From positions 1-60,101 of the IMG/VR virus record IMGVR_UViG_3300044970_000208: a stretch of DNA of 60,101 nucleotides; one strand, 5' to 3'. The stretch comes from a virus (taxonomy: Duplodnaviria > Caudoviricetes). Position numbers and translations under genes: made by a program. Shown one piece after another: positions 2,638 to 26,951 of the stretch. Position 1 is the stretch's first letter. Each line of letters starts with the position of its first letter. The notes beneath the pieces were generated by a model that was not told the origin of the DNA, made no database searches, and saw nothing but the letters and a program-made list of their open reading frames with translations.

Positions 2638-2667
2638 TTGACAGGGGTTTTGCAAAGTCTGCATAAT
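2638..2667 (+). promoter_or_regulatory. Early sigma70-type promoter P3
   Basis: TTGACA-18 bp-CATAAT, homologous to P1 and P2. Confidence 0.8.
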
Positions 2668-2962: not shown

Positions 2963-3169
2963 ATGCAGTGGAATCTTGAAAATCTCAATGTCACTGCTGT
3001 CTATCTTGACAGCATTCCAGTTGCTGGCATGGTGACATTGTCCCGTGTCAGATATGGTGGTGAAGTATCACATCACATCACTCTCACATCACCCATCACT
3101 GTGTATGGCACAGTGCGTGACAGCGTTATCGTTGATCACAAACACATTCAAACTATTTCTTCTTCCTGA
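2963..3169 (+). CDS. Early hypothetical protein (MQWNLENL...), 68 aa
   Basis: Start reassigned to the ATG after the RBS hairpin. Confidence 0.8.
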   Translation: MQWNLENLNVTAVYLDSIPVAGMVTLSRVRYGGEVSHHITLTSPITVYGTVRDSVIVDHKHIQTISSS

Positions 3170-3180
3170 AAGGAAACAAA

Positions 3181-3390
3181 ATGTATACAACACGACGATC
3201 TGGTTTTGACCGTGAAGATGCCCGTCTGCATTATGCTCAGTTGCAAAGCCGCAAAGCAAAGCTTCAACATCACCTCTTCGCTCTTCAGGAAGCAAGAACT
3301 GAGGCGTACAACATGGGTGAATGGGACAGGGTTGACCGTATCCAGTTGGCTATCGATGACACATCCGATGAACTGAAAAAGCTTTCCTGA
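3181..3390 (+). CDS. Early hypothetical coiled-coil protein, 69 aa
   Basis: RBS hairpin, packing. Confidence 0.8.
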   Translation: MYTTRRSGFDREDARLHYAQLQSRKAKLQHHLFALQEARTEAYNMGEWDRVDRIQLAIDDTSDELKKLS

Positions 3391-3402
3391 AAGGAAACAC
3401 AC

Positions 3403-3789
3403 ATGAAAGTATTCGTCTATTTCAATCTGCATCGCAAATGCTTCAGCATCAAGGCACTGGAAGGCCCGAAGAAGGGCCGTGTCATTGCCCATCGTGACGA
3501 TGTGTTGCTCTTCGATGGCACATTCAAGGTGTCCGAAGCTGGTCGTCAGCGTGTCCTTCGTGAACGTAAAAAGAATGTGCATGCTGGTGTTGTCGGTCAT
3601 TGGGATGAGACAGGCACTGACCTGATAAGCATTGACCGTGTCACCACCATTGGTAGGCCCGTCACCTACAACCCATACAAATACAACACCTTTGTATACT
3701 TGTACGGTGAGCATCCTGTCGGTGGTTGTCGTCTTGTGGCACTGACTGTCAACGAAAACAAACGATCTCACATCAACGTCTGGAATTGA
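3403..3789 (+). CDS. Conserved phage hypothetical protein
   Basis: VYFNLH..CFS and FKVSEAGRQRVLRERKKNVHA motifs seen in a widespread phage family. Confidence 0.85.
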   Translation: MKVFVYFNLHRKCFSIKALEGPKKGRVIAHRDDVLLFDGTFKVSEAGRQRVLRERKKNVHAGVVGHWDETGTDLISIDRVTTIGRPVTYNPYKYNTFVYLYGEHPVGGCRLVALTVNENKRSHINVWN

Positions 3790-3854
3790 CAGCGCTTTGT
3801 AATGCTATTGTATCAGTAGCATTACTGACTCACTGTCGAGTCGTCCTGAAAGGA
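3788..3854 (+). ncRNA. Pseudoknotted intergenic RNA element, copy A
   Basis: ACAGC-N5, 12-bp stem GTAA..TTAC, T, 5-bp stem whose loop pairs with upstream GACAG, then GAA hairpin. Confidence 0.6.
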
Positions 3855-3860
3855 AACATC

Positions 3861-4037
3861 ATGCGTTTAATCACCAAGAAAAACGGCATCGAAATATGGG
3901 CACAGTTTGACCAGTCTGCACAGGTCTATGAGTTGTTCTTCGACAACGAAGGGCAGACATACACTGGATGGGCTGTTGATTCCATCAAAGATGCACTGGC
4001 TGCATCGACTTACATCATCCAAGAACAACTGTCCTGA
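3861..4037 (+). CDS. Early hypothetical protein (MRLITKKNG...), 58 aa
   Basis: Start reassigned to the ATG after the RBS hairpin. Confidence 0.8.
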   Translation: MRLITKKNGIEIWAQFDQSAQVYELFFDNEGQTYTGWAVDSIKDALAASTYIIQEQLS

Positions 4038-4048
4038 AAGGAAACATT

Positions 4049-4429
4049 ATGGGCCTCGATATGTATGCATTCACAGTGGATGCGAAAGATGTTGGTGACG
4101 CTGTCACTGATGTGGCACTGGGTGACAATGCTGTAGAGCTATTCTACTGGCGTAAGTTCAATGCTTTGCATGGTTGGATGGAAAACTTGTATCGCCTCAA
4201 AAAAGGCTTGCGAGTAAGCTTCAATTGCACTACAGTGAGATTGACCAGCGAAGACCTTGACCGACTAGAGATGGACACAGGTAATAACAAGCTTGTACCC
4301 ATCAATGGGTTCTTCTTCGGTGAGCAAACGATATATCCCGAAGACCTCGAAAGCGTTGCAACATTCGTTGCTAAAGCAAGAGAGGCACTGGCTGAGGGCA
4401 AGGCTGTGTATTACGACTCATGGTGGTGA
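4049..4429 (+). CDS. Conserved phage hypothetical protein (MGLDMY...YWRK.N.LHGW...YYDSWW family)
   Basis: Recognisable family motifs, RBS hairpin. Confidence 0.85.
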   Translation: MGLDMYAFTVDAKDVGDAVTDVALGDNAVELFYWRKFNALHGWMENLYRLKKGLRVSFNCTTVRLTSEDLDRLEMDTGNNKLVPINGFFFGEQTIYPEDLESVATFVAKAREALAEGKAVYYDSWW

Positions 4430-4456
4430 TCGCCTTCGGCTCACGTAGCTAACGCT

Positions 4457-4526
4457 ACAGCACCCCGTAACAGCCTTCACTGAGGGTTGTTACTGATGCG
4501 CTGTTGCATCGACACTTCCGTAGGAA
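4457..4526 (+). ncRNA. Pseudoknotted intergenic RNA element, copy B
   Basis: Same geometry as 3788-3854 with compensatory changes. Confidence 0.6.
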
Positions 4527-4531
4527 AACAC

Positions 4532-4798
4532 ATGAAAATCGCAGACTTCATCGCCCAAAGCAAGGGCAAGTTCATCACCATCAACTTCATTAAGAAAGAT
4601 GGCACTGTCCGTAAACTGAATGGTCGCATTGGTGTTACCAAGTATCTCAAGAACGGCACAGCCACTGTCGATCTTGACAAATACCTGATCGTCTATGACA
4701 CCCTCAATGCTGGCTATCGTAGCGTCAACAAAGACACCATCGTGTCGGTGACATGTGAAGGCTTGACCATCAACAACAACGCAATGGTGACAGCATGA
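4532..4798 (+). CDS. Small SH3/Sm-like beta-barrel protein (WYL_2/DUF2693-like)
   Basis: FIKKDGTVRKL and VYDTLNAGYRSV motifs. Confidence 0.6.
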   Translation: MKIADFIAQSKGKFITINFIKKDGTVRKLNGRIGVTKYLKNGTATVDLDKYLIVYDTLNAGYRSVNKDTIVSVTCEGLTINNNAMVTA

Positions 4799-6610: not shown

Positions 6611-6636
6611 TTTGTAGGGTTTTCTGGATGGTTTAT

Positions 6637-6666
6637 TTGACAAGCCATCTGGAAAGCCTTTACACT
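6637..6666 (+). promoter_or_regulatory. sigma70-type promoter P4 inside an inverted repeat
   Basis: TTGACA-18 bp-TACACT upstream of DUF932. Confidence 0.7.
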
Positions 6667-7646: not shown

Positions 7647-8474
7647 ATGTTAATGAATCAAAACAACGCTATCGGTATGTTCATGGGTCTGTTCATCGGT
7701 GATGCACTCGGTGCGCCATTGGAATTCACTGAGCCTAACACTGGCTCCCCACTCAAGGACATGGTCGGTGGTGGTGTTCATGAGACAGCACCGGGAGAGT
7801 GGACAGACGATGGTGCTATGGCAATGGCTATTGCTGATGCCTACCTCAGCTACAAACGCTTTGCTCCCGGCATCATTGCACAGAACTTCAAACAGTGGAG
7901 AAACAATGGAACTTTCGGTACTCGATCTTATTGTTTTGATATTGGAACTACTACTGCTGAAGCGCTGAGTGCATCGTCCAACAAGCGTCCCTATGGTGGC
8001 TCTTGTGCCCTCATGACAGACGGTAACGGTGCGATCATGCGACTGGCTCCACACATACTGTTCAACCACAACAACAAGACGATGGCGATTGCTGAGTCTG
8101 TTGCTGGTGGCTTGCTCACTCACGGTACAGGTAAGTGTGTTGCCTATAGTGCTGCACTGGCTGAAGAGTTGTTCGATGGGTCTGCACCAAACAAAACCCT
8201 GTACGACAAAGGCATCAAGGAAGAGAGTGGCACAGTGATGGGCTGCTATGCATCGGCATGGCAGTCTGTTGCAGCTACATCGTCCTTTGAAGACGCTCTC
8301 ATCCACGCTGTCAACAAAGGTGGTGACGCTGATACTGTTGGTGCTGTGACAGGTATGATTGCTGGTCGCATCTATGGCTACGATGCCATCCCTCAACGAT
8401 GGATTGATGCACTGGTTGACCACGACAAGTTGTTGGCGACAGCAACTATGCTTTACAACATGGGTGATGTATGA
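7647..8474 (+). CDS. ADP-ribosylglycohydrolase (DraG/ARH family)
   Basis: GDALG..EF, WTDD, GNGAIMR and GDADT metal-binding motifs. Confidence 0.93.
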   Translation: MLMNQNNAIGMFMGLFIGDALGAPLEFTEPNTGSPLKDMVGGGVHETAPGEWTDDGAMAMAIADAYLSYKRFAPGIIAQNFKQWRNNGTFGTRSYCFDIGTTTAEALSASSNKRPYGGSCALMTDGNGAIMRLAPHILFNHNNKTMAIAESVAGGLLTHGTGKCVAYSAALAEELFDGSAPNKTLYDKGIKEESGTVMGCYASAWQSVAATSSFEDALIHAVNKGGDADTVGAVTGMIAGRIYGYDAIPQRWIDALVDHDKLLATATMLYNMGDV

Positions 8475-18320: not shown

Positions 18321-18634
18321 AACCGAATGATGTAGCTATTGTGCTGCGTCCTCACTACAAAAAAGGTGAGAAGTGGGATGGAAATTTCCAAGTGATGATT
18401 AGTGGTGTTGGCCCTGTCACTATGGACGAAGAAGACTTCGCTAGTCTTGTTCATATCGGCATGATTATTGCCGCCACTGTTCCATTGATTGATGAAGACC
18501 CTGCGCTGGCTGATCGTTTTCTTGAGAAGGTGAAGGCCATCTACAACCAATCTGCTATTGACGAACTTGAGGATGTCAAGGATGCAGAGTTTGTGTTGTC
18601 TAAGTATACGAAGACGATTGGGGGTGTGCAGTGA
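18293..18634 (+). CDS. Hypothetical protein, 113 aa
   Basis: Packing, codon usage. Confidence 0.75.
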   Translation: MEATNANKLKPNDVAIVLRPHYKKGEKWDGNFQVMISGVGPVTMDEEDFASLVHIGMIIAATVPLIDEDPALADRFLEKVKAIYNQSAIDELEDVKDAEFVLSKYTKTIGGVQ

Positions 18635-19143
18635 CTGATAAGAATTGTGAGAATTGTTTTTACGGAGACTATTCTGCTGATGATGATCCTTGCAATAGTT
18701 GCTGTGCAGACTCAATGAATGGTAAAGACATGTACTCCAAATGGGTAGCCATTGATGTATTCAAGAACATTGACAACCACGGTGAAGCTATGGTGAAACG
18801 ACAACACAGTCCACAAGTTCATGAAGAAGATATTGTGACTGGACATATCAAAGTTGAAGGTGTCAAGTACGACAACGACAAACCTCAATGGTCTTTGCTG
18901 CCCTTCAAAGCTTTGAAAGAAGTTGTTGATGTGTTGACCTATGGCGCGAAGAAGTATGCACCAGACAACTGGAAGAAGGTGCCAAATGCTAAGCAGCGTT
19001 ACATCGATGCAGGTTTTCGTCACTTCACTGCCTATGCTGCTGGTGAAAAGCTAGACCCCGAAACTGGTAAGAGTCATCTTGCTCACGCTATGTGTTGCCT
19101 GCTATACTTGCTGGCCTTTGAAATAGGAGAAGATCGTGGCTAA
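18631..19143 (+). CDS. DUF5664 dATP/dGTP diphosphohydrolase-domain protein with Cys-rich N-terminus
   Basis: GVKYD..KP.WSLLP, YGAKKY..DNW, RH, DPETGKSHLAHA. Confidence 0.85.
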   Translation: MTDKNCENCFYGDYSADDDPCNSCCADSMNGKDMYSKWVAIDVFKNIDNHGEAMVKRQHSPQVHEEDIVTGHIKVEGVKYDNDKPQWSLLPFKALKEVVDVLTYGAKKYAPDNWKKVPNAKQRYIDAGFRHFTAYAAGEKLDPETGKSHLAHAMCCLLYLLAFEIGEDRG

Positions 19144-19500: not shown

Positions 19501-19873
19501 AGAACGCAATGGTGGTGAATGGACAGAGGCACGATTCAGAAGTTTCGTGACCTCTGCCTTACGTGCAGCGTCAAGGCGTTGGCCTCCTAAGTACAAGGCT
19601 TTGAAGGAAGCTTTCGTGGGTAGGAAGGTGAATGCTAAGACGGGTAAGCAGGCAATGCATTACCAGTGCGCTGAGTGCTCTAAACATTTCGTAGCAACAG
19701 ACGTTCAAGTTGATCACATCCATCCTGTTGTAGACCCTAAGAAGGGCTTCACTACATGGGACAACTTCATTGAACGTATGTTCTGTGAGATAAAGAATCT
19801 TCAGGTGCTATGTAAGCCTTGCCATAAAATCAAAACTGATCAAGAGAAACTTGAAAGGAAAAAGAAAGTATGA
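19475..19873 (+). CDS. HNH endonuclease
   Basis: CAEC..VDHIHP..NLQVLCKPCHKIKT; start uncertain. Confidence 0.88.
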   Translation: MKRFTVTVKERNGGEWTEARFRSFVTSALRAASRRWPPKYKALKEAFVGRKVNAKTGKQAMHYQCAECSKHFVATDVQVDHIHPVVDPKKGFTTWDNFIERMFCEIKNLQVLCKPCHKIKTDQEKLERKKKV

Positions 19874-20760
19874 GCTTCCTAAAATATCAACACCTTGAAC
19901 GCTACGGTAACACCGAAGTGGAAGGCATTGAAGTGGGTACATGCTATGTCTTCCCTAAGCTGGACGGTACTAACGGTAGTGTCTGGTATGAGGACGGCAC
20001 ACTGCGATGCGGTAGTCGCAACCGTGAGCTTGCACCAAACAACGACAATGCTGGTTTCATGAACGCCATGATGGACAATGTGTCCGTGTTAACGTATGTA
20101 ATGGCGAACAACGAACATATACTGTACGGTGAATGGCTTGTGCCGCATACACTGAAGACCTACAACGACGATGCATGGCGCAAGTTCTATGTGTTCGATG
20201 TGTTTGATCGCAAGAAAGAACGACTGCTTAGCTATGACGAATACTCTGAGGGCTTGGTTGCTGCTGGTATCAACGTCATTGCCCCTATTGCCATCATCAA
20301 GAACGGTAGCATCGACCACTTTACTGAGTGTCTTAGCAAGGCACACTACTTGGTGAAGGATGGTGAAGGTAGTGGTGAAGGTGTTGTCATCAAGAACTAC
20401 GACTACAAGAACAAGTATGGTCGTCAGACTTGGGCTAAGATTGTCACCAACGAATTCAAAGCCAAGCATCACATTGCAATGGGTGCGCCTGTTGTTGGTT
20501 GTGAAATCGTTGAAGAGAAGATTGCTGCTAAGTATGTGACGCAAGCTTTGGTTGACAAGGTGGAAGCAAAGATTGTCAACGAGATGGGTGGATGGTCATC
20601 GAAATATATCCCTCGACTGATCAACACTGTGTGGTACGATGTAGTCACTGAAGAGACTTGGAACTTTGTCAAAGAGTTTAAGAATCCGAAGGTGGACTTC
20701 AAGGTGTTGTCGCATTACGTGACAGCGAAGATTAAAGAACTGAAAAAGGAACTGTTCTAA
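19870..20760 (+). CDS. RNA ligase family protein (Rnl2-like)
   Basis: Motif I KLDGTN, SRNR, GEW, FDV, EGVVIK, AK. Confidence 0.85.
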   Translation: MSFLKYQHLERYGNTEVEGIEVGTCYVFPKLDGTNGSVWYEDGTLRCGSRNRELAPNNDNAGFMNAMMDNVSVLTYVMANNEHILYGEWLVPHTLKTYNDDAWRKFYVFDVFDRKKERLLSYDEYSEGLVAAGINVIAPIAIIKNGSIDHFTECLSKAHYLVKDGEGSGEGVVIKNYDYKNKYGRQTWAKIVTNEFKAKHHIAMGAPVVGCEIVEEKIAAKYVTQALVDKVEAKIVNEMGGWSSKYIPRLINTVWYDVVTEETWNFVKEFKNPKVDFKVLSHYVTAKIKELKKELF

Positions 20761-24277: not shown

Positions 24278-24456
24278 GAAACTTCACTGTCAGCTACAGC
24301 AGCCAATGCAACGTCTTCAAAGGTGTGTTGCATGTTAAAGCAAACACCATCTCTGAAGCACAGGACAAGTTCTTTGAATGGCTGCGAGAACAACCCACAT
24401 ATCCACATCTTTGGCAACTCACTTTCGAGTTCACAGAGATCGGAACTAGTCTATAA
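24274..24456 (+). CDS. Hypothetical protein, 60 aa
   Basis: Coupled packing. Confidence 0.65.
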   Translation: MRNFTVSYSSQCNVFKGVLHVKANTISEAQDKFFEWLREQPTYPHLWQLTFEFTEIGTSL

Positions 24457-24509
24457 TGTCCCCTAAGAAGCCCCATGTCGGGGCTTCTTCACAACCAAAG
24501 GAAGTATTG

Positions 24510-25256
24510 ATGGTTACTAAACGAAAAGCAGCACCAGCACAGGTCCACGAATCACCAGCACCAGCTACTAAAAACAATAGCTTGCGTGTACGACTCGATG
24601 ACATGGCAACGATCCAGCCCAAGACAGCAAAGCAGAAGGAATTCTTCGATGCCTATAACGCTGGTGACTACTTCATGTGTTTGCATGGTGTTGCTGGTAC
24701 AGGTAAGACTTACATTGCTCTGTACAAAGCGCTTGAAGAAGTGATGGACAAGACTAGCCCGTATAAGAAGGTCGTCATTGTTCGTAGCTCTGTGCAAAGT
24801 CGTGACATGGGTTTCTTACCCGGTGACGCTAACGAGAAGATGGAGACATTCATCCAGCCCTATCGTCAAATCTGTGCTGACCTGTTCAACCGCAAGGATG
24901 CATGGGATAGATTGTCTGAACAGGGCTACATCGAATTCATTTCGACCAGCTTCATTCGTGGCACCACCTTCACCAACTCCATCTTGTTGGCTGATGAAAT
25001 TCAGAACATGGGATTTGAAGAACTCGACACCATCGTCACTCGTGTCGGTCACACATCGAAGATCATCTACTGCGGTGACATCCGACAGACTGACTTGAAG
25101 AAGAAGGACGACAAGACAGGCTTACCAAAGTTCTTGGACATTGTGCAGGACATGAGAGAGTTCAGCAGGTTTGAGTTTGGTATGGATGATATTGTCCGAA
25201 GCAGCTTGGTGAAGAACTACATCATTGCTAAAACACTTTATGAGGATCGTCAATAA
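24510..25256 (+). CDS. phoH: PhoH family ATPase
   Basis: GVAGTGKT, GFLPG, IRGTT, DEIQN, TRVG, GD..Q.D, DIVRS. Confidence 0.95.
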   Translation: MVTKRKAAPAQVHESPAPATKNNSLRVRLDDMATIQPKTAKQKEFFDAYNAGDYFMCLHGVAGTGKTYIALYKALEEVMDKTSPYKKVVIVRSSVQSRDMGFLPGDANEKMETFIQPYRQICADLFNRKDAWDRLSEQGYIEFISTSFIRGTTFTNSILLADEIQNMGFEELDTIVTRVGHTSKIIYCGDIRQTDLKKKDDKTGLPKFLDIVQDMREFSRFEFGMDDIVRSSLVKNYIIAKTLYEDRQ

Positions 25257-26919: not shown

Positions 26920-26951
26920 AAAAAGGGGAGCCTATGTAGCTCCCCTTTTTT
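26920..26951. terminator. Bidirectional intrinsic terminator between the two arms
   Basis: AAAAAGGGGAGC-loop-GCTCCCCTTTTTT. Confidence 0.92.

Follow-up and report, generated by a model that had tools for sequence, protein, structure and literature searches.

Two copies of a pseudoknotted element between early genes

In the present study, we analyzed the IMG/VR virus record IMGVR_UViG_3300044970_000208, a complete record of a lake phage of 60,101 bases with direct terminal repeats (hereafter the window, which means this whole stretch of DNA), in which two segments between small early genes are copies of one structured RNA element. The left arm of the genome carries, on the plus strand, small early genes and then the genes of a replication module (T7-type primase/helicase, family A polymerase, thymidylate synthase, and ribonucleotide reductase), and the right arm carries, on the minus strand, the genes for the portal, the terminase, and large structural proteins. 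The core of the element is about 55 nucleotides (nt) long and lies on the plus strand at 3788-3842 (copy A) and at 4456-4510 (copy B). The parts of both copies and the surrounding genes are listed in Table 1.

The two copies share a common plan, namely a 5' strand of 6 nt, a linker of 5 nt, a hairpin of 12 base pairs (bp) with a 3-nt loop (H1), a single nucleotide (U), and a second hairpin of 5 bp that has a loop of 6 nt (H2). The loop of H2 is complementary to the 5' strand, which gives a pseudoknot that encloses the 12-bp hairpin. These stems and loops and the single-U junction were first pointed out in an initial annotation made from the sequence of the window; they agree exactly with the sequence, and a hairpin scan recovered both 12-bp hairpins with their 3-nt loops. 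The initial annotation also added a short hairpin with a GAA or GTA loop to the 3' end of each copy. Both of these appear in the predicted folds; they are generic mini-hairpins of this phage's gene junctions, in which an anti-Shine-Dalgarno (anti-SD) strand pairs with a Shine-Dalgarno (SD) sequence, and they do not belong to the element. When copies A and B are aligned, the mean column identity is 76%.

Table 1. Positions of the parts of copies A and B, of the neighbouring genes, and of the early promoters in the window (aa, amino acids)
Feature	Position	Strand	Remarks
Sigma-70-type promoters (three, near-identical)	1080-1109, 1783-1812, 2638-2667		18-nt spacers; 11-12 of 12 consensus positions
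128-aa gene	3403-3789	+	Pfam Phage_L5_gp82; upstream of copy A
Copy A, 5' pseudoknot strand GACAGC	3788-3793	+	overlapped by UGA stop of the upstream gene (3787-3789)
Copy A, linker (5 nt)	3794-3798	+	GCTTT in type A copies
Copy A, hairpin H1	3799-3825	+	12 bp, 3799-3810/3814-3825; loop TAT; one U.G
Copy A, junction T	3826	+	
Copy A, hairpin H2	3827-3842	+	5 bp, 3827-3831/3838-3842; 6-nt loop 3832-3837 is the 3' pseudoknot strand
Mini-hairpin UCCU-GAA-AGGA	3844-3854	+	RNA fold; outside the element; 5' of the 58-aa gene (ATG 3861)
Two small genes between the copies	3861-4429	+	58 aa, 3861-4037; 126 aa, 4049-4429
Copy B, 5' pseudoknot strand (T)ACAGC	4456-4461	+	upstream stop 27 nt further 5' (4427-4429)
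Copy B, linker ACCCC (5 nt)	4462-4466	+	RYCCY in type B copies
Copy B, hairpin H1	4467-4493	+	12 bp, 4467-4478/4482-4493; loop ACT; two G.U
Copy B, junction T	4494	+	
Copy B, hairpin H2	4495-4510	+	5 bp, 4495-4499/4506-4510; 6-nt loop 4500-4505 is the 3' pseudoknot strand
GTA mini-hairpin	4516-4526	+	RNA fold; generic anti-SD/SD; 5' of the 88-aa gene (ATG 4532)
88-aa gene	4532-4798	+	WYL_2 / Sm-like barrel; downstream of copy B; commonest downstream neighbour of the element

Conservation and covariation of the fold

In the window alone, the pattern GTAA-N19-TTACTGA is unremarkable, since it gave three matches with at most one mismatch against 1.05 expected, and 12 of 100 shuffled sequences reached three. 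Chance is excluded by the conservation of the element across phages and not by the window alone. We built a first covariance model from copies A and B only, and searched loci that had been fetched from IMG/VR through two neighbouring proteins. Matches on the plus strand scored 42-79 bits, and no score on the minus strand exceeded 25 bits; over all scans, the corresponding values were 42-82 and at most 27.5 bits. Thus, the search of phage loci that the initial annotation had proposed found homologues, and in these all three helices covary.

The 28 matches of the covariance model represent 25 distinct sequences, which give 565 pair cells. For the pairing statistics, we used only sequences that were found without constraining both pseudoknot strands, and left out those from later pattern scans that demanded ACAG and CTGT. 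Standard pairs occupied 97.9% of the cells, against 84.6% in shuffles (none of 500 reached the observed value), a test that is inflated by the kinship among the sequences. In a control in which the pairing partners were slid, only 28-57% of the pairs were standard. Changes on both sides were found in 11 of the 23 pairs overall. All cells of the two hairpins were paired, and both sides had changed in 7 of the 12 pairs of H1 and in 2 of the 5 pairs of H2; for the pseudoknot helix (columns 3-8 with 54-59), 91.9% of the cells were paired and 2 of the 6 pairs had changed on both sides.

Among 24 sequences, the central pair of the pseudoknot helix (columns 5:57) is C-G in 14 and U-A in 9, and in one it is broken; the switch between C-G and U-A was seen in backgrounds of both type A and type B (see below for the types). 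Furthermore, one contig (L014) has AUAG/CUAU in its copy A and ACAG/CUGU in its copy B. Since each copy matches its own loop, the pairing is intramolecular. As an argument, the shuffle test carries less weight than the slid-partner control and the repeated independent switches. The pseudoknot between the 5' segment and the loop of H2, which had been proposed from their complementarity in the two copies of the window, is therefore supported by compensatory changes from C-G to U-A.

G.U pairs fill 51 of the 565 cells, and one U.G pair in H1 (the 10th pair of H1 in copy A) is invariant in all 25 sequences. Because this pair and the other G.U pairs would be A-C mismatches on the opposite strand, the fold is that of the sense strand, on which all flanking genes are encoded. 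Together with the high scores of the covariance model on the plus strand only, the invariant U.G bears out the earlier suggestion that the G-U pairs favour an RNA of the plus strand. These observations point to a role of the element as part of an mRNA, presumably one transcribed within an early polycistronic operon.

The calculated free energy was -12 to -17 kcal/mol for H1 alone and about -14 to -25 kcal/mol for H1 with either H2 or the long-range helix. The two nested alternatives (H1 with H2, or the pseudoknot helix with H1) usually differ by no more than 3 kcal/mol, and the nested minimum free energy fold chooses the long-range helix over H2. Since H2 and the long-range helix both covary and share no nucleotides, they are most simply read as parts of a pseudoknot; a two-state switch in its place is possible. 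The first and last nucleotides of the H2 loop (3832/3837, 4500/4505, and their homologues) are linked, being A..C in 12 and G..U in 12 of the 24 sequences of an unbiased set. The pseudoknot alone does not explain this linkage, and an isosteric wobble pair that closes H2 in an alternative state would fit it.

Known RNA families, sequence types, and distribution

Rfam 15 gave no match in the whole window at the gathering score, and a search of 3700-4600 with E-values up to 10 gave only one unrelated match of 12 bits on the minus strand. These searches confirmed the initial view that no family can be assigned. ARAGORN found no tRNA or tmRNA genes in the window. A published catalogue lists 8,495 candidate structured RNAs from IMG/VR, and the candidates described there resemble the element as intergenic motifs of about 60 nt with covariation from uncultured phages (PMC10690425). 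The motif is absent from Rfam and from the published descriptions that we found, and it may carry a number among these 8,495 candidates.

We distinguish five sequence types. Types A and B are those of the two copies in the window, type C is a divergent copy in one locus (L051), and types D and E are from two uncultured marine phage genomes filed under Zobellviridae in GenBank. All five types have a hairpin of 11-12 bp that starts with GURA and ends with UYAC, a single junction nucleotide, and a 5-bp hairpin that starts with G and has a 6-nt loop. The apical loop of H1 is free to vary from 3 to 8 nt, the linker is GCUUU or RYCCY, and the junction nucleotide may be U, C, G, or A.

Pattern scans, the later of which required ACAG and CTGT, located 17 stretches of IMG/VR with type A and 10 with type B (23 distinct loci), and gave matches in 17 metagenome stretches. 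A pattern scan of 185,579 prokaryote genomes gave no match, and the element was not found outside this phage group, whose members are uncultured and podovirus-like. A covariance model designated R2, applied to another 100 related loci, gave no match that scored higher than 21 bits. Of the eleven complete genomes of the group, the window contains two copies, a single copy is present in six genomes, and the element is absent from four. An unfiltered search of the window found only the two copies and their antisense echoes, the next best match having 13.3 bits. In BLAST searches of GenBank phages, copy A gave chance-level matches only, and copy B gave two uncultured genomes filed as Zobellviridae. 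The marine copies are at 2486-2548 and 3004-3065 in one genome (L217) and at 2486-2548 and 3000-3061 in the other (L218), and each pair flanks one gene, which encodes a predicted lipoprotein with a signal peptide and a lipobox-like cysteine. In genomes with two copies, a small variable cassette lies between them.

Position between genes

An upstream open reading frame (ORF) was identified in 47 contexts, and in 33 of them its stop codon falls within the 5' pseudoknot strand, at model positions 2-4; a 34th context with an overlapping stop (L100), which was mis-called by the script (-45), is not part of this count. The overlapping stop is TGA in all contexts except one (L085, TAA), and the upstream genes belong to seven unrelated families. 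In the other contexts, the stop is 7-36 nt 5' of the element, and after the 126-aa gene the distance is 19-36 nt. Because the copies after the 126-aa gene and the divergent type C copy are without the overlap, the overlap looks like compaction and not like a mechanistic need.

On the 3' side, the next ATG begins 13-18 nt after the end of the model in most contexts and 27-33 nt after it in eight (range 13-33 nt). It is always preceded by an SD of the AGGA type, and in most copies H2 ends about 3-8 nt before this SD. In L005, L006, L012, L094, L095, L099, and L201, an extra small hairpin, GGAC-UARC-GUCC, is present between H2 and the SD and lengthens the gap to the ATG to 27-33 nt. The downstream gene in 49 contexts is the 88-aa WYL_2/Sm-like gene in 23, the 58-aa gene in 8, the 126-aa gene in 6, and one of about eight other small genes in the rest.

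The 128-aa gene shows what the element replaces. Among 16 distinct contexts after this gene, the element is present in 9, and in the other 7 a single base separates the stop codon from the next ATG. The element thus takes the place of a tight, coupled junction of stop and start. When the window was compared with its relatives by BLAST, the homology broke at 3785/3787 and at about 3845-3869. As these breaks are at the edges of the element, it is a separate module at mosaic boundaries.

Several other explanations of the conserved sequence were considered and rejected. Pairing of the linker with the SD, judged by eye, was inconsistent across the contexts. A consensus scan found no promoter or terminator at 3786-3860 or 4454-4531; the conserved 5' TTGACA is not accompanied by a conserved -10 sequence, because the loop of H1 varies, and no T-run follows H2. 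ORFs at 3726-4037 and 4487-4798 cross the copies, but differences of 1-5 nt in loop length and the covariation of the pairs oppose a coding sequence. A phyletic link to one partner gene was confounded, since several clade-specific genes associate equally well with the element-bearing contigs.

For the 88-aa gene, some public gene calls extend the protein to 99-105 aa, into the RNA element of copy B. The predicted fold of the 88-aa protein consists of an N-terminal helix and a bent beta-sheet.

Possible function of the element

The element replaces a coupled junction and stands just before an independent SD, which suggests a post-transcriptional role, and it probably sets the expression of the next gene. 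Since the lengths of the helices are fixed across the five types (11-12 bp, 1 nt, 5 bp, and 6 nt), recognition by a macromolecule is suggested. Furthermore, the base pairs are conserved in sequence and the apical loop (3-8 nt) is free, which suggests such recognition and not a mere stabilising hairpin. We tentatively propose that the element is a punctuation site of the mRNA that is read by a trans-acting factor, which may be an endoribonuclease or some other factor that binds RNA, and that the fold would protect the resulting RNA end. A processing site, which the initial annotation listed as an alternative, is accordingly a plausible candidate.

According to this proposal, the element would be transcribed within the early polycistronic mRNA, and a trans-acting macromolecule would recognise its shape and a few conserved base pairs, which may be the GURA/UYAC base of H1, the invariant U.G, and the G-C start of H2. 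The best candidate for this macromolecule would be an endoribonuclease. Through cutting or binding, and through the stable fold that stays on the RNA end, the downstream cistron would lose its coupling to the upstream one, so that its stability and translation could be set independently, each accessory cistron keeping its own SD. Recognition by a factor, and processing or stabilisation at the element, are our best guess from the comparison of sequences.

The RNase III sites of phage T7 offer a comparison. They are single, long, irregular hairpins with an internal loop, and several of them per operon occupy most of the early gene boundaries. Like the element, they are structured, divergent in sequence, and conserved in shape, and within an early polycistronic transcript they are placed after a stop codon and ahead of the following ribosome binding site.

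Several points weigh against a punctuation site read by a factor. The element differs from the T7 sites in being a pseudoknotted double hairpin that is present in zero to two copies per genome, and it is dispensable, as complete relatives carry 0, 1, or 2 copies. A simple protective hairpin would need neither a pseudoknot nor conserved identities of base pairs. The type E marine copies can form just 4 of the 6 pseudoknot pairs (3 contiguous and 1 isolated), and the type C copy is in the untranslated leader of an early operon, with no upstream ORF. In addition, a search for the host via prophages found no relative of the primase/helicase in the 185,579 prokaryote genomes, and no RNA sequencing run containing the sequence was found.

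The main alternative is that the element is a translational operator, in which an RNA-binding protein bound to the element would control the adjacent SD. The candidate is the 88-aa Sm-like (WYL_2) protein, which would regulate its own synthesis as in phage T4 gene 32. We regard this as unlikely, in spite of several observations that agree with it. The 88-aa gene is directly downstream in 23 of the 49 contexts. Conversely, in 22 of 24 distinct contexts of close homologues of the 88-aa protein (at least 75% identity), the element is directly upstream, and in the remaining 2 it is one gene further up; these contexts include at least six upstream genes and elements of either type. The distance of about 3-8 nt between H2 and the SD in most copies would also suit an operator. 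The protein scored 26.3 bits with Pfam WYL_2, against a cut-off of 26.7, and its homologues carry PF10902; its structural model (predicted local distance difference test, pLDDT, 78) resembles Hfq, Rof/YaeO, and WYL domains. However, these fold matches are weak (best E-value 0.017, template modelling score 0.5-0.6), and the association is confounded by shared ancestry, as other clade-specific genes associate as well. The element is also found 5' of at least nine other gene families, one genome (G001) has the element and no detectable 88-aa gene, and in eight contexts 27-33 nt separate the element from the ATG. The marine copies have no homologue of the early proteins of the window within 2.5 kb.

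The operator of T4 gene 32 is a pseudoknot upstream of the gene for a nucleic-acid-binding protein (PMC10690425). The element resembles it in being a pseudoknot directly 5' of a gene for a small, predicted nucleic-acid-binding protein, whereas it differs in being also 5' of many other genes and in having an extra 12-bp hairpin inside the knot.

It is also conceivable, though quite unlikely, that the element acts at the DNA level as a recombination module, an exchange point by which accessory early genes are shuffled in the manner of PeSL, the RNA fold being secondary. The homology breakpoints coincide with the edges of the element, near-identical elements occur between differing genes, and in two-copy genomes the copies flank the variable cassette. 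Yet the compensatory changes and the invariant U.G indicate selection on a single-stranded fold of the sense strand and not on the identity of the DNA, and with a mean column identity of 76% the copies in one genome are too divergent for efficient homologous exchange. Integron attC sites have a similar cassette-boundary logic; they have AAC/GTT core triplets and extrahelical bases, and their bottom strand is folded. An attC site was rejected, because the base of H1 is TAAC..GTTA in some copies only (TAAT..ATTA, TGAT..ATCA, or TAAG..CTTA in others), the stems of the element are without bulges, and its top (sense) strand is the one favoured by the G.U pairs.

A precedent for such exchange is PeSL of T4-like phages, described in the accessible part of the report as small conserved intergenic motifs that mediate gene exchange and consist of a terminator stem-loop and an early promoter (PMC4122927). 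The element shares with PeSL an intergenic position in a variable early region, at the boundaries of insertions, deletions, and replacements. However, by the consensus scan it is without the promoter and terminator that define PeSL, it has covariation of the RNA type, and the scan of the 185,579 prokaryote genomes found no match.

The initial annotation compared the two adjacent stems with the put sites of phage HK022. In a put-like mechanism, the nascent double hairpin would bind the RNA polymerase of the host, which would then resist pausing and termination downstream. The element and put are alike as cis-acting RNAs of a phage early region, with two adjacent hairpins (one nucleotide apart in the element) and two sequence-divergent copies per genome. 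No N-like protein was found, and the type C copy lies in an untranslated leader, both of which would suit such a mechanism. Nevertheless, we consider it very unlikely, and the likeness does not extend beyond the two hairpins one base apart. The core of the element is 55 nt, with stems of 12 and 5 bp, and its second loop is engaged in a pseudoknot of 5-6 bp. Its copies are intercistronic; the closest strong promoter of the sigma-70 type (2638-2667) lies about 1.1 and 1.8 kb upstream of them, and copy A overlaps a translated stop codon at its 5' end. No convincing terminator was found within 2 kb downstream, and the element is missing from 4 of the 11 complete genomes. An unfiltered search of the whole HK022 genome with model R2 found nothing in 27.6-30.1 kb, which we take to be the early control region (neither put sites nor early promoters are annotated in the HK022 record); the best matches elsewhere had E-values of 0.057 and 0.087. 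Rfam gave no put family for the presumed put region of the HK022 record, and since Rfam is thus silent on put itself, its silence on the element says nothing about put. As far as the accessible parts of two reports describe it, put is about 65-70 nt long with two long stem-loops in a V shape and no pseudoknot, is located in untranslated leaders 0 to about 270 nt from the early promoter (about 270 nt for putR), and acts on terminators far downstream (PMC9378689, PMC8632103). A related idea is that an RNA acting without protein on the host RNA polymerase (or the ribosome) would serve as a portable expression adaptor for accessory cassettes and represent a second class of put-like antiterminators, to which we give just as little credence. 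Structurally unrelated to put and outside the lambdoid phages, this class would have a pseudoknot in the place of the second long stem, which we consider no less doubtful.

There is little likelihood that the element works in trans as a small RNA or decoy, in which a stable RNA of about 55 nt would be excised and would titrate or mimic an RNA-binding factor of the host, such as a defence component. Its dispensability and its patchy occurrence among accessory early genes are often seen for anti-defence functions, and its fold is very stable (-21 to -30 kcal/mol); however, it has neither a promoter nor a terminator of its own, its position just 5' of a start codon is constant, and the Rfam searches found no similarity to a catalogued RNA.

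Small ribozymes are common in phages, and an intergenic phage RNA that forms a compact pseudoknot with fixed geometry might be a new small self-cleaving ribozyme or a riboswitch, for which the nearly iso-energetic nested alternatives would allow switching. Such a catalytic or ligand-sensing RNA, which the initial annotation listed among its alternatives, is highly improbable, since the conserved nucleotides are nearly all in helices and the linker, the junction nucleotide, and the loop of H1 vary. Even at E-values up to 10 no ribozyme or riboswitch of Rfam matched; the SD lies outside the fold and no terminator follows.

Finally, the UGA inside the 5' strand, with H1 starting 10 nt after it at a spacing similar to that of recoding stimulators, might be taken as a signal for read-through, selenocysteine insertion, frameshifting, or bypassing, but this can practically be dismissed: in-frame read-through of copy A reaches UAG after 9 codons, the copies after the 126-aa gene are 19-36 nt from the stop and no ORF precedes the type C copy, the downstream gene is provided with an SD and an ATG of its own, and no frame is preserved, as the H1 loops of copies with the same flanking genes differ by 1-5 nt.

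Whatever its function, the element is a well-supported structured RNA that is missing from Rfam, and its 55 nt suit direct structural and biochemical study. Its topology is unusual, in that the whole loop of one hairpin pairs with a strand 5' of it and a 12-bp hairpin is enclosed between the two. The element marks the places where related phages swap accessory early genes, and its reader would show how new genes gain independent expression. A compact natural insulator of this kind would be useful in synthetic operons. If the partner is RNA polymerase or the adjacent Sm-like protein, the element would be a new example of RNA-based control in phages without a cultured host.

Other features of the early region and of the genome

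The same leader, starting with TGAAAGCATCGA, follows each of the three sigma-70-type promoters. A terminator-like hairpin with a T-run is located at 2697-2711, about 30 nt after the third promoter. An untranslated leader of about 250 nt comes after it and contains, in the region 2860-2940, two conserved hairpins (2866-2887 and 2902-2934, the latter of 14 bp). The first of these is kept in relatives, and in L051 the divergent copy of the pseudoknot element is directly 3' of it.

The junctions between early genes are mostly very tight: the stop codon is enclosed in a short anti-SD/SD hairpin, and the next ATG follows after a few bases. The arrangement UUCC-UGA-AAGGAAACA-N2-4-AUG recurs at 2943-2965, 3163-3183, 3385-3405, and 4031-4051, where the stop codon forms the loop of a 4-bp anti-SD/SD hairpin. 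This layout suggests translational coupling by the terminating ribosome.

Further downstream, a 19-bp hairpin at 6616-6666 has TTGACA in its loop and 3' arm and is followed by TACACT; this composite of stem-loop and promoter is reminiscent of PeSL motifs. Perfect palindromic hairpins between A-runs and T-runs at 26920-26950 and 24465-24489 are likely to be bidirectional terminators, the former being where the two gene arms converge. Among the Pfam matches in the window are an ADP-ribosylglycohydrolase (7647-8474), an RNA ligase (19870-20760), PhoH (24456-25256), and the N-terminal domain of a dATP/dGTP diphosphohydrolase (18631-19143), which is typical of purine-modifying phages.

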